DNA of 34,848 bases, taken from the IMG/VR virus record IMGVR_UViG_2651869781_000011, one strand, 5' to 3'. The DNA is from a virus. Taxonomy: Duplodnaviria > Heunggongvirae > Uroviricota > Caudoviricetes. Below, piece after piece: positions 2,915-30,969 of the stretch. Every line of letters begins with the position of its first letter. Positions within the stretch are counted from its first letter, which is position 1. A model generated the notes under the pieces. It had not been told where the DNA came from, ran no database searches, and worked only from the letters and a program-made list of their open reading frames with translations. A program made the position numbers and the translations under genes.

Positions 2915-5900
2915 TCAGGCACTGCATAATCCTCCGTCCCGACGTGATGACTGCATAATTGACACAACCCTGCTGTCGATCAGATCCACCAGCCCCCTGG
3001 CTGACTGCGTATCTATCTCGCCATTGCTCCCTTTATTCTGAATACTGATGTGATACACGGGAGAATAAACAAATCCCCCGCCACCATTCACATTGCCAAT
3101 GGCTCTGACCCCAAGAGAGCCGTCCGCTGCCCGTGTCAGTGGCATGATAGCTTCAGGCCCGGCCTCGCCCATCAGCCCGGCACCTTTCGCAAAAGCAAAA
3201 TACGTCGGTGTATCCACAATAGTGTTACTGTAAGCACTCAGATTTGCCGATGTGTAAACACCACCTTTTGCGTTTGCCACTGCACCGGAAAGCCAGTCGC
3301 CGACCGTACCAAGCCATCCTCCGGCACCGGACATGCTTTTGGAAAGTGACTTCAGCCCGTTAACGATGGCAGCGTTCATCAGAATTTTTGAAACTTCCTG
3401 GAGGATTGAACTCCCCCAGTTTCGCCAGTCCACAACATTTCCGGCCAGTGCATCGGAAATATTTGATACCAGCCCGTCCATAGTGGAAACGACAGCATCT
3501 GCCGCCTGCGAAGCATAATCGGTGGCACTGTCTGCCCAGTTCGTCAGCCCCTCCTGGAGTCCGGCATTCCAGTCACTGCGTAAAGCATCAGCCTTTGCAT
3601 AATAATCCTGCTGATCGCTGAGACGCTCTTCCAGATATTTTTCATTCAGCGATTTTTCCTGTTTCCACAGGGCTTCTTCAATTTCTCCGGCCTGATACTG
3701 TCTCAGCAGCTCGTTATTTTTCTGCTCAAACGCCTGCCGGATACTCCACATTTCCTGGAGTCGTTCACGCATCCGTGAGCCTTCACCATATCCCAGCAAC
3801 TGCGCGTCGTCAGATGCCCGGGCGCTGGCATTACTGTCCGCCAGACTGCTTTCATACGCGGCAAGCTGCTCACGAATCTTTTTCTGGTCGATGAGTGCCG
3901 CATTCTGTAAAAGCGTTTTTTTCTGCGCTTCTGACAGGGTTGATAATTCGCCCTGACTGACCTGATATTTCATCTTAGCCAGTTCAGTATTCTGACCTGC
4001 CAGTGCTATTTGTTCTTTTTGCTGTTTAATCAGCCGTTTATAAATATCTTCTGTTTTTTCCGCTTCGGTCTTTTTATGCGCTTTGGGTTTATTTGCCTGG
4101 TTATTTCGCCAGGCATCCAGTGAGTTATTGATATAATTCTGTCTGGCTGTCTGATACGCCTCTCCCACAAAGCCGAGATCATCCGCAGCATAACCCAGTC
4201 GGGCACGCTCACGGGCTTCCCCCTTCAGGCGGGACAGAGCCAGTTCGCGCTCGCTGTTATTCAGTGCGGTCTGCTGTTTATCATCCAGGGTGGCCTGTGG
4301 CAGCCGTAACGGTACATTCACCAGCCCCTGTCGCTGCTGAAGTAATTCATTACCAAGCCCGAGAAGGCGATTAAACTCGGTATGCTGCCCATTCATGATC
4401 AACATGGACTGATACGCTTTGTTTTGTTCCGCTGCCTGTTGACGGATCAACGCAACCCGCCGCTCCTCCAGCCCGGCAAGCACATCCTGAATGGATTGCG
4501 CTTTGTCCTGCATTTGAGTGAGGCGAGACTGTTCAACTGCCAGTTGATTTGTTGCTTCTGCAAGCCCTTCTGTGACAGTTTTTACCGACGTCATGTGGTT
4601 AATCATAAAACCGTTATCGGTTGTCCAGCCCGGGTTTGCCAGCACATACTGATAGCCAGCAATTTTTTCCTGTAAGGATTTAATCTTACTTTTCTGCTCG
4701 TCAATTAACCTGTTCTGCTCCTTCAGTGCCTGCCGCGTCTTTTCCTCATTATCTGACGCTTCAGGAAGCGACATTGCCGACGTTTTCTGGCGAATTTCGT
4801 CGATTGTTGCGGCATACTGGCGTGCAGATTCTCTGGCCTGCTCCTGATTCTGATACATCGTGTACCAGGCCGTCGCCCCCAGCATGACGAGTCCCGGCAC
4901 ACCACCAACCAACCCCAGCGCACCACTTAACAGACGACTCCCCACTGACGTGACAGTATTCAGCGTTGTCTGTGCCGCTGTTCTGGCCGTAATATTACGG
5001 GTAAGTGACGCCTGGGCAGCTGTCAGCTTCGCTTCTGCGGCTGCCTGCCTTTCGGTACCGCGAGCAGCAACAACCGCCTGTTGCGCACGATAAACCGCCG
5101 CACGCGCCCTGGCGGTTGCTATCTGTGTCCCCCGAAGTTGCGCTTCAGCAAGAGCCACTTCGTTTCTGGCTGCAGTAATTAATCCGGCAGTTGCAGATCC
5201 AGCAGAAGACGCCATATTGCCAAAATATCGGGCTACCCCGACGGCAACCAGAGCACCGGCAGCGGTTGCCACAGTGTCAATATTGCCTGCAATACCATTC
5301 AGCACACCAGAGAGCGTCTTTGTCACTCCGCTTGCCTCGTTCGCACCACCAACCCAGGCCATAAAGGCGTTTTCAACTTTGGTTGCAGAGGATGAAACCG
5401 TATCAGGCATTGCTGCATATTCATCACGCAACGCCCCAAGCTGACTAATCAGTGCAGGGACAACCTTATCGGCAGTCAGTTTTCCGTTATCCGCCATGGC
5501 CTTCAGATCCTTACGGGCAACACCCATTCCCGCAGCCAGCGCACGAATAACACGATCGCCGTTCTCATTCACAGAGTTAAATTCTTCACCACGCAGCACT
5601 CCCTGCGCCAGTGCCTGACTGAACTGCGTGATCACCGAACTGGCTTCTGCTGTACTGGCACCGGATAATTTCAGGCCCGTGGAGATCGCCTCGGTGACTT
5701 TCAGTACCTCCTCAGAACTGTAGCCATACTCCCGCATGGAAGCTGCAGAACGGGCAAAAAGGCTGGCGTTATCAGAAAACGCCGTCCCCGTTCTCTGGCT
5801 GATCGCCATTAATTCACGCTGTGATGCCTGAAAATCATCACTGGACTGTGAGGCCTGCTTCAGACGGGCATTTACTGAATTCCACTCATCGGCGAGAGAA

Positions 5901-28185: not shown

Positions 28186-28262
28186 CACCCCTCCAAAGTT
28201 GAGTTTTCTCAATAGTAATCACTCAAGGAATCTCAAGTCAAGGGTTATTAAGATATCTAAAT
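28186..28262. promoter_or_regulatory. Divergent promoter/operator region between dicC-like and dicA-like genes
   Basis: TTGAGTTTTCTCA at 28199-28211, CTCAAG direct repeats at 28222-28237; candidate minus-strand promoter TTGACT-N18-TACTAT; no SD before the dicA ATG. Confidence 0.5.
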
Positions 28263-28670
28263 ATGAACGAGAAAACTTTAGGTCAACGAATTAGAGAAAG
28301 ACGCAAACAGGTTGGTTTAAGTCAAAACGATTTAAGCAAAGCCGCTGGCGTATCTGGCTCATCAATTTCACTATGGGAAAGCGACCATACAGCCCCGCGC
28401 GGGCAAAATTTGCATCGCCTGGCTGAGGTATTGCAATGTTCACCAACTTGGATACTGTTTGGTGACGAGGATAAAACACCAGATCCACCAGTTGCACTCA
28501 ACAGCGCCTTAGACTTATCGGAAGATGAGTTGGAGATGTTGCGATTGTATCGCGCACTTCCAAAATCAGAGCAGCAAGCACAAATCAGCGAACTCCGTGC
28601 CCGCGTTGAGAATTTTAATCGCCTATTCACCGAGCTACTAGAAGCTCGCAAACGTAACAAACATCAGTAA
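28263..28670 (+). CDS. dicA: XRE-family repressor (DicA-like, CI analogue)
   Basis: 135 aa; HTH LSQNDLSKAAGVSGSSISLWE; ...VLQCSPTWILFGDEDK... matches DicA as recalled. Confidence 0.8.
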   Translation: MNEKTLGQRIRERRKQVGLSQNDLSKAAGVSGSSISLWESDHTAPRGQNLHRLAEVLQCSPTWILFGDEDKTPDPPVALNSALDLSEDELEMLRLYRALPKSEQQAQISELRARVENFNRLFTELLEARKRNKHQ

Positions 28671-28731: not shown

Positions 28732-28783
28732 TTGAGTTTTCTCATTAAAAACACTTGACCAATATTCATGAGAAAACTAAATT
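28732..28783 (+). promoter_or_regulatory. Candidate repressor-controlled promoter for the ydfA-dicF-dicB operon
   Basis: TTGACC-N17-TAAATT (28755-28783) flanked by TTGAGTTTTCTCA (28732-28744, identical to the 28199 site) and an inverted near-copy at 28769-28780. Confidence 0.45.
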
Positions 28784-29394: not shown

Positions 29395-29416
29395 TAGCTA
29401 ACCAACGAGGCTAATA

Positions 29417-29824
29417 ATGGAATTTAAAGATTTACCAAAAGAAATCCAGACAATTGCTGCAACGACTCTCGGTGATAGTCTGGTGAAAATTGACCCGGCA
29501 TACACCAAAAAAGAAACCATCGATAATATGGTTCGTAATGTGCGCAATGCTTTTTCTGGGCTATATGGTTCTGATAATCAAAAGCAGGAAAGCGATGTTA
29601 ATAAACGGGTAATTTCTGTTTGCGTGAATGGCCATGTTCTTTCATCAATCAAAACAGAAACGGCGACAGTCTTCGATTGCCTTTGCATTGTACAGAGCCT
29701 TGTTGATGCCCTGTTTCGTTCAGTGAATTTAGAAAATGATGCAAATCTGCGAGGGCGCACAATAGCACATCCATATGCACATACTTTAGGCTCTGTGGAT
29801 ATCAAAGATCCCACAAATCTTTAA
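29417..29824 (+). CDS. Hypothetical protein (135 aa), AT-rich
   Basis: ATG 29417 with GAGG SD at 6-nt spacing; no recognisable motif. Confidence 0.5.
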   Translation: MEFKDLPKEIQTIAATTLGDSLVKIDPAYTKKETIDNMVRNVRNAFSGLYGSDNQKQESDVNKRVISVCVNGHVLSSIKTETATVFDCLCIVQSLVDALFRSVNLENDANLRGRTIAHPYAHTLGSVDIKDPTNL

Positions 29825-30035
29825 TGAAATAGTTAACGCGAATTGTACTTGCTCTTTCAGTTGCTTTCAGAATACGCGTTGAAACTGCTGGCGGTAATTT
29901 GGTATTCCATTTATTAAAATCATGCCCGGGAAAGTACTCTTCGAAAATACTTTTAACTGCAGACTCGCCTATTGAAATGCTGCTTACCATGCGATTTTGA
30001 TAAAGGCATTTAGCAATAAGAGTTGATTTTAACAT
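29802..30035 (-). CDS. Hypothetical protein (77 aa), convergent with the 135-aa ORF
   Basis: ATG 30035 with strong AGGAGG SD; 3' end overlaps the 135-aa ORF by 23 bp; AT-rich. Confidence 0.5.
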   Translation of the reverse strand: MLKSTLIAKCLYQNRMVSSISIGESAVKSIFEEYFPGHDFNKWNTKLPPAVSTRILKATERASTIRVNYFIKDLWDL

Positions 30036-30368
30036 TCACCCTCCTGAGGGTTGGTAATTAAGGAGTTCTCCACGGGTGAAATGGAGTGCGTGCGCCGGAC
30101 ACGGGTGAACATCCGGCACTGACAGTTTACTGAAAGGATATTTCTCTGAAAAGTCAGAGCATAACGCGAAAGCGCACGGCGAGGTTGCTGGTTCATAGAT
30201 AGCCTGTCGTTAAATTTTCGTCGACCGTGCGCTTCCGGTTGTGGCACTCCGCGAAATGGCGCGGCGGTAAGTATGGCGGGGTTATTCCTTCCCCCGTTGA
30301 GGACACCGGGTTGTCAGGTTGACCATACGCTTAAGTGACAACCCCGCTGCAACGCCCTCTGTTATCAA

Positions 30369-30425
30369 TTTTCTGTGACGTTTGGCGGCATCTGTTTGCC
30401 CATGAACTGATGTCCGCCCTTTTTA
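30369..30425 (+). ncRNA. dicF: DicF-like small RNA with intrinsic terminator
   Basis: TTTTCTGTGACGTTTGGCGG...CCGCCCTTTTT resembles Qin DicF as recalled; GGCGGCATC/GATGTCCGCC stem then T5; immediately upstream of dicB. Confidence 0.65.
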
Positions 30426-30593
30426 AAGTGAATTTTGTGATGCGGTGAATGCGGCTAAGCGCACGCGGAACAGTTAAAGCTAAAAACAGTGTTATGGGTG
30501 GATTCTCTGTATCCGGCGTTAATTGTTAACTGGTTAACGTCACCTGGAGGCACCAGGCACCGCATCACAAAACTCATTGTTGAGGACGCGATA

Positions 30594-30782
30594 ATGAAAA
30601 CGTTATTACCAAACGTTAATACGTCTGAAGGTTGTTTTGAAATTGGTGTCACTATCAGCAATCAGATATTTACTGAAGATGCCATTAATAAAAGAAAACA
30701 CGAACAGGAACTGCTAAATAAAATATGCATTGTTTCGATGCTGGCCCGTTTACGTCTGATGCAAACAGGATGCAGGCAATGA
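30594..30782 (+). CDS. dicB: Cell division inhibitor DicB
   Basis: 62 aa MKTLLPNVNTSEGCFEIGVTISN...ICIVSMLARLRLMQTGCRQ; GAGGA SD; matches DicB as recalled. Confidence 0.85.
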   Translation: MKTLLPNVNTSEGCFEIGVTISNQIFTEDAINKRKHEQELLNKICIVSMLARLRLMQTGCRQ

Positions 30783-30969
30783 ATACGGCATTTGTACTCG
30801 TTCTGACTGTTTTTTTGTTTCTGGTGAACCGATTGATCTTGTTATTGACATACATGACTCAATGGAAGAATGCATGACTGCCGCGGCAGAGCAAAAAATT
30901 CCCGGGAACTGTTATCCTGTCGACAAAATTATTCGCATGAACAATAACGAAATCCCGGCAGGCCTTTAA
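30779..30969 (+). pseudogene. ydfD: ydfD-like gene interrupted by a frameshift at a T7 tract
   Basis: ATG overlaps the dicB stop; frame stops after 32 codons; one extra T in the 30810-30816 run would give a continuous 63-codon ORF. Confidence 0.5.

Follow-up and report, generated by a model that had tools for sequence, protein, structure and literature searches.

Two small genes that face each other in the window, the 34,848-nt stretch of caudoviral DNA analysed here (IMG/VR record IMGVR_UViG_2651869781_000011), belong to two protein families that are, to judge by their homologues, almost always found together and constitute a conserved two-gene module of lambda-like prophages. One of them, gene A, encodes 77 amino acids (aa) on the minus strand; its partner, the B domain, is the C-terminal part of a 135-aa open reading frame (ORF) on the plus strand, and the two coding sequences share their last 23 bp. 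We give a probability of roughly one half to the reading that A and B are a switch-coupled antagonistic pair, in which obligatory convergent transcription would impose reciprocal expression on the two genes.

The gene pair and its early operon

The order of features in the window (repressor, promoter and operators, ydfA/ydfB/ydfC, DicF, DicB) matches that of a dicBF (Qin-type) early operon; the names ydfA, ydfB and ydfC are taken from strain CAU16175, which is 99.1% identical. The features on which the following analysis draws are these:

28263-28670: dicA-like repressor gene
28755..28783, plus strand: dicB-type (PL-like) promoter found by promoter scan, TTGACC-17-TAAATT, with operator-like repeats flanking it
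29417..29824, plus strand: 135-aa ORF with ATG start, from the ORF listing
29417..29587, plus strand: N-terminal domain of the 135-aa ORF, ~57 aa (MEFKDLPKEIQ...), a predicted helical hairpin
29588..29824, plus strand: B domain, phrog_23433 family, convergent partner of A and early gene of the dicB/PL-type operon
29802..29824, no strand assigned: 3' overlap TCAAAGATCCCACAAATCTTTAA, a 23-bp near-palindrome read from the sequence
29802..30035, minus strand: gene A, 77-aa ORF with ATG start, encoding a predicted soluble five-helix protein of the phrog_10348 family, antisense to the early operon
30036..30045, minus strand: translation-initiation region of A, read from the sequence as AGGAGG (30040-30045), 4 nt, then the ATG
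30080..30109, minus strand: inverted repeat GTGCCGGA..TTCACC..TCCGGCGC, homologous in alignments to the repeat that embraces the A promoter -35 in other genera
30124..30152, minus strand: weak sigma70-like candidate promoter, the sole one upstream of A in the window, TTTTCA-17-TAAACT, 8/12 matches in our own scan
30370-30419: DicF-like RNA, RF00039, E 4.9e-7, 41.1 bits, below the gathering score of 48
30594-30782: DicB, Pfam match 5.9e-39

The predicted promoter at 28755..28783 would serve ydfA-ydfB-ydfC, then the 135-aa ORF and then, across the antisense gene A, dicF and dicB; repeats resembling TGAGTTTTCTCA can be read at 28199 and 28733. The 135-aa ORF has its own Shine-Dalgarno site, a GAGG 6 nt ahead of its ATG, and the base composition of the region differs from that of its neighbours, with a GC content of 37.5-42.5% over 29400-30000 against 47-55% in the flanks. 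The ORF listing, the sequence and these GC figures bear out the initial annotation, which had described an AT-rich, convergent pair of real genes, overlapping at their 3' ends by 23 bp and each provided with a Shine-Dalgarno site; its statement that the minus-strand gene runs against the dicA-controlled operon also agrees, in part of that operon, with the positions and strands in the window.

No RNA family reached its gathering score in the window, the only matches being sub-threshold ones to DicF and to the STnc100 sRNA family, the latter at 30431-30571 in the dicF-dicB leader (38.7 bits against 47). The DicF copy is a variant whose loop and terminator-hairpin 3' arm differ from those of K-12 dicF. 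The homologue of ydfD (DUF1482, lysis protein) at 30779-30969 is split by a frameshift at a T-run around 30813-30819 into pieces at 30779..30877 and 30862..30969, and the same gene is annotated as 'frameshifted' in the near-identical strain CAU16175.

Protein families, selection and domain structure

At informative divergences, pairwise dN/dS was 0.06-0.26 for A and 0.15-0.36 for the B domain; on this comparison of codons both ORFs are genuine protein genes and not chance ORFs. Since both strands code for proteins under purifying selection, neither can be regarded as a plain antisense RNA.

A profile search with A against 1.84 billion representatives returned 161 clusters, nearly all of them stand-alone proteins of 74-80 aa, and its predicted structure is a compact, soluble five-helix bundle (pLDDT 96.5) that appears to be a new small fold. 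In PHROGs, A falls into phrog_10348 (1.1e-47 over residues 1-77 of 77), while the 135-aa protein matches phrog_1363 (3.8e-47 over residues 1-130) and, through its B domain, phrog_23433 (1.4e-9, residues 55-128); all three families are annotated 'unknown function', and A and B proteins are otherwise annotated only as hypothetical. The AlphaFold2 model of the 135-aa protein has a moderate pLDDT of 72 and places helices at residues 8-23 and 32-50, a disordered linker at 50-61 and then B, as a beta-hairpin with two helices; a structure search with this model gave no informative match. Searches of both proteins against Pfam, NCBIfam, PADLOC and the PDB, the last by sequence and by profile, returned nothing significant. 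In a literature search no paper was found to mention the accessions or PHROG identifiers, and the dicBF papers that it returned are without a description of either ORF.

One public source labels A a 'dGTP triphosphohydrolase'. We rejected this label, for which 77 aa is far too short and for which no domain or profile evidence was found, and likewise rejected a relationship to the T7 gp1.2 dGTPase inhibitor, with which A has no similarity (hhalign probability 0.2%).

Convergent genes with overlapping 3' ends in a prophage recall the type I toxin-antitoxin systems txpA/RatA and bsrG/SR4, and the initial annotation had called such genes typical of toxin/antisense or regulator/effector morons. In such an addiction module, one product or an antisense RNA would neutralise a toxic partner and thereby stabilise the prophage. 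The neighbourhood fits, inasmuch as the early genes dicB, dicF and ydfD are toxic, the products of dicF and dicB stopping cell division (PMC5069750). We nevertheless consider a toxin-antitoxin module highly unlikely, having found no support for one: searches of PADLOC, Pfam and NCBIfam matched neither A nor the 135-aa protein to any known toxin, antitoxin or defence family; neither protein contains a membrane-like segment or resembles a hydrophobic peptide, the maximum 19-residue Kyte-Doolittle mean being 0.59 for A and 1.58 for the 135-aa protein (<1.6); selection has conserved the proteins of both strands; the genes are convergent in every locus, as opposed to the co-directional genes of type II systems; and the operon to which B belongs is repressed in the lysogen.

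Alignment with other genera divides the 135-aa ORF in two. Residues ~58-135, including the tail, share 37-43% identity with stand-alone proteins of 77-80 aa from Serratia, Klebsiella and Dickeya, whereas the 57-aa N-domain is confined to E. coli and Salmonella and is missing from the stand-alone partners in other genera. By these alignments the 135-aa ORF is a fusion in which the true partner of A is only the C-terminal ~78 residues, and the N-domain is not part of the ancestral pair. At least five families (124-212 aa; P0076-P0085), all from E. coli or Salmonella, begin with the same N-domain (MEFKDLPKEIQ...) and continue into C-termini that are unrelated to one another; the domain may be an adaptor common to them or a recombination linker.

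A profile search with B found 76 relatives, other relatives being stand-alone or bearing different N-terminal additions. One such addition is seen in Citrobacter (L019/L020, 3501-3920; P0113, P0140-P0142), where a ClpX-type C4 zinc finger (PF06689, 9.6e-10) precedes B in the same fused protein. The invariant N-terminus of A, MLKSTLIAKCL, bears what we take to be a loose resemblance to N-terminal ClpX recognition tags.

The slot is occupied differently in three E. coli loci (L003-L005, 4385-4779), in which the B protein is 73 residues longer, at 201 aa in total, and an unrelated 63-aa gene (phrog_2605) stands in the place of A. This gene is also convergent, also overlaps its partner by 23 bp, and has the same leader and ribosome-binding site as A. 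Because the stand-alone Serratia, Klebsiella and Dickeya partners are homologous to the C-terminal half of the 135-aa protein, tail included, the form with 201-aa and 63-aa proteins is, by homology, the derived variant.

Distribution, overlap and the absence of the pair from Qin

Homologues of both ORFs are found in other genera at 35-72% identity, those of A at 55-72% in Klebsiella, Serratia, Dickeya, Xenorhabdus, Yersinia, Morganella and Salmonella. The module as such is present in Escherichia, Serratia, Klebsiella, Dickeya, Citrobacter, Hafnia, Proteus and Photorhabdus and in a Bryobacterales metagenome-assembled genome (MAG), with overlaps of 23-51 bp. The convergent partner of A in Serratia, Klebsiella and Dickeya prophages is always a gene for 77-79 aa, and the overlap is the same 23 bp as in the window; across the survey, which comprised 106 A-hit rows from 103 loci, this overlap was found in 88 rows, the remaining lineages having 26 bp (Hafnia), 30 bp or 51 bp. 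Our HMM survey of the fetched loci detected a convergent, overlapping B-family ORF at every A locus except two: L026, from Psychrosphaera, where an A-like gene stands alone without B, and L090, which is cut by a contig end. Counted from the B side, A is convergent in 65 of 69 viral contigs, most loci being redundant copies from E. coli. Near-identical prophages of this species make up the bulk of the co-occurrence sample, which contains only 35 distinct protein pairs; its lineages nevertheless cover very different prophage backbones. Wherever A and B occurred together in the non-E. coli loci examined, they were convergent and overlapping, which strongly upholds the earlier proposal that the two genes belong together. 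Within E. coli, A is carried by 650 of 5426 complete genomes (~12%), including O157:H7 EDL933 and TW14359 and strains of O26 and O111.

Several individual loci deserve mention. The Bryobacterales MAG contig, from a GC-rich Acidobacteriota (L024, 2995-3700), encodes an A homologue of 51% identity with a convergent B-like ORF, a 30-bp overlap and adjoining HTH genes, and represents either very wide transfer or a mis-binned contig. In Hafnia (L016, 4144-4224) the position that the dicF leader takes in E. coli, between A and the early-left genes that come next, is occupied by a tRNA gene (RF00005, 45.6 bits); an RNA-family search of the other-genus loci found no DicF-like RNA adjoining A. Between the early-left operators and B, Serratia and Citrobacter prophages share a near-identical leader of ~70 nt (L006/L008, ~5470-5545; L013/L015, ~3405-3480), although their A and B have diverged to 35-40% identity; this leader is without an Rfam match.

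The TCAAAGATCCCACAAATCTTTAA overlap is near-palindromic, so that both window proteins end in IKDxxxL*. The tail of B within the overlap varies freely and is dictated by the conserved C-terminus of A, with its invariant FIKDLW codons; the overlap may thus be a packing accident. In Serratia (L006, 5212-5234) the overlap palindrome is AAAGATCTTT, which contains GATC and codes for KDL in both genes.

A variable tail set by the codons of A is also what would be expected if A and B were accessory genes of no relation to one another that are simply inherited together, packed tail to tail where recombination is scarce, their overlap a frozen accident and their functions uncoupled. Other observations point in the same direction: E. 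coli A proteins that differ by 1 aa are paired with two B-domain variants only 76% identical, in the 201-aa variant another small gene has taken the place of A, L167 has lost A and kept B, and the A-like gene of L026 has no partner at all. The almost identical A with divergent B domains, the swap and the lone gene weaken the case for a strict protein-protein dependence. However, despite the high mosaicism of lambdoid genomes, the two genes have remained neighbours, convergent and with overlapping ends, in sources that range from E. coli to Proteus and the Bryobacterales MAG, while their flanks change; moreover, in Citrobacter a divergent B is accompanied by a divergent A (35% identity, E 3e-17), with an overlap of 51 bp. 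We consider mere co-travelling unlikely.

The dicBF operon of K-12 Qin (dicA/dicC, ydfA-ydfB-ydfC-dicF-dicB-ydfD; layout as described in PMC5069750) shares its backbone, gene order and repressor-controlled promoter with the window, and the flanks align on both sides of the pair. It differs in that ~631 bp, corresponding to ~29413-30043 of the window and comprising exactly both ORFs, are missing, so that ydfC joins the sequence after 30044; what is left in Qin is the flank upstream of A, homologous to the A-proximal inverted repeat. The window DicF, for its part, is the sub-threshold variant. No microhomology or diagnostic repeats that might indicate the direction of the change are evident at the junctions in the alignment of the window with Qin. 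Proteus, too, shows a ydfC-like gene followed by B and then by convergent A. Because Qin has kept the upstream flank of A and Proteus has the same order of ydfC-like gene, B and A, a loss in Qin is likelier than a gain here, and K-12 Qin probably lost the module rather than this prophage having acquired it. The initial annotation was thus right that both ORFs are absent from K-12 Qin; its further suggestion, an insertion between ydfC and dicF, holds as far as this absence goes and fails as a local insertion peculiar to this prophage, the module being old and widespread.

Transcription of the two strands and possible function

B lies in the same early-left operon in other genera as it does in the window, with A antisense to that operon. 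What precedes B is either a cI-like repressor gene or a YdfC-like gene. Sequence words shared with the cI-cro operator region recur in the gap between repressor and B in 5 of the 6 non-E. coli loci examined, and in Klebsiella this gap contains a PL-like promoter with 10/12 matches; these operator words and the PL-like promoter indicate that B opens the early-left operon or follows a YdfC-like gene as its second member. In Dickeya (L012), the sole word shared with the repressor-cro operator region sat upstream of A. We also considered a rex-like position for B, with expression in the lysogen, and rejected it because of the operator-like repeats and PL-like promoter between the repressor and B.

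The extended -10 motif TGnTAnnnT is found at -35 to -43 from the ATG of A in 19/19 non-E. coli loci, most of which also have TT(C/A)ACC 16-17 nt ahead of it, inside an inverted repeat. Outside E. coli, A has, by this motif, its own extended -10 promoter-like element. The window sequence upstream of A (30046-30130) shows homology to the promoter region that A has in other genera, with a -10 element that reads GTGGAGAACT and not GTGGTATCTT; the corresponding promoter-like region in Klebsiella or Serratia is TGGTATCTT. TGnTAnnnT is absent from both E. coli types examined, the window included. With the ancestral -10 replaced and only a weak candidate promoter at hand, A may be poorly expressed in E. 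coli.

The inverted repeat around the -35 of A, of the form GCC(G/T)G..N10-12..C(A/C)GGC, lies upstream of A in loci L006-L105 and is also found in K-12 (L002, ~2610-2640). Between lineages it is preserved with a single compensatory change, and it may serve as an operator or form an RNA hairpin in the early transcript.

If its promoter had decayed, the minus-strand gene of E. coli would be a silent relic, and only the fused plus-strand ORF would be expressed, as a further early gene of the dicB operon. The missing extended -10 motif, with only an 8/12 candidate promoter left, would fit such a relic, as would the frameshifts in A in L102/L104 and the longer, 93%-identical copy of A in one complete genome (H67). 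Against this, of the 650 complete E. coli genomes with A, 646 have an intact copy of at least 99% identity, a level that recent spread may partly explain; the strong AGGAGG site has been kept; and the alternative 63-aa gene reuses the same leader, which argues that the leader is functional. A silent relic seems to us distinctly improbable.

In scans of the window and of the Klebsiella and Serratia loci, no terminator-like site was found between the genes or just past either stop codon. The 23-bp overlap itself leaves no space for an intervening terminator, and in Serratia the first terminator for the A strand is the bidirectional one beyond PL. Sharing a 23-bp end without a separating terminator, the genes would yield transcripts that are each antisense to the opposite gene over its full length, the A transcript to B and the early transcript to A.

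The reading of A and B as a switch-coupled antagonistic pair builds on points that are directly established, namely that both genes are real and linked, that their geometry is conserved, where B lies with respect to operators and promoter, and that a promoter motif precedes A outside E. coli. The repressor would keep the leftward operon of B (in the window dicBp-ydfABC-B-dicF-dicB) silent in the prophage, in which state A would be made. Upon derepression, B and the downstream dicF and dicB would be made, and strong early transcription would override A through collision and antisense pairing. A and B would then act as antagonists, on each other or on one pathway; A might, for example, be a factor of the prophage state and B an early lytic protein by which that factor is neutralised. 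A further effect in E. coli could be that the A unit lowers read-through into dicF and dicB. A more specific form of this scheme, which we regard as doubtful and which would make the pair a kind of prophage switch not described before, has A as a new-fold factor made only in the repressed prophage, for example for exclusion or modification of the host, with B as the first early lytic protein disarming it and convergent transcription through the shared 3' end enforcing their exclusivity and, in E. coli, gating read-through into dicF/dicB.

The layout is an unusual one for a lambdoid prophage, with a conserved protein gene placed antisense within the early-left operon and tail to tail with an early gene, and it makes a simple system in which reciprocal expression through convergent transcription can be tested. 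As the products of dicF and dicB stop cell division, an antisense gene between them and their repressor-controlled promoter could set the leakiness or inducibility of these division inhibitors. The earlier idea that antisense transcription modulates dicF/dicB fits the gene geometry, with the qualification that the ancestral -10 element of A has not been kept in E. coli.

Morons, as conceived for HK97 and HK022, are additional genes, equipped with a promoter and terminator of their own, that have been inserted between otherwise conserved lambdoid phage genes. The module resembles them in its presence or absence at one position in related prophages, its lower GC content and the orientation of A, on the opposite strand with a promoter-like motif outside E. 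coli. Unlike a moron, it lacks its own terminator, A cannot be separated from its partner in the early operon, and the whole is old and widespread rather than sporadic and autonomous.

txpA/RatA and bsrG/SR4 are type I toxin-antitoxin systems of Bacillus prophages with convergent, 3'-overlapping transcripts. The likeness lies in small convergent prophage genes whose 3' ends overlap; the present pair differs in that it has no hydrophobic toxin peptide and no similarity to toxin or antitoxin families, and in that its 'antisense' strand is a conserved protein gene.

Prophage exclusion genes with an escape function are known from near the immunity region, as lambda rexAB and P22/lambda sieB-esc. 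These are likewise small accessory genes close to the repressor and the early-left promoter, and the proposed pairing of a prophage-state factor with a factor that spares the phage's own growth would be analogous; no similarity of sequence or fold to them was found, and our genes are convergent rather than nested or co-directional.

Control by convergent promoters and antisense transcription is found in temperate phages, in coliphage 186 at pR/pL and in lambda at cII/oop. In these, as in the arrangement proposed here, a repressor-controlled lytic promoter faces a second promoter, the transcripts are mutually antisense and the geometry favours reciprocal expression. The module differs from both in that its opposing transcript codes for a conserved 77-aa protein and in that the 3' ends of two protein genes overlap. 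Transcriptional interference has been modelled (PMC5001618), and among the systems compared it is these convergent-promoter devices of temperate phages that the module, by analogy, would work most like.
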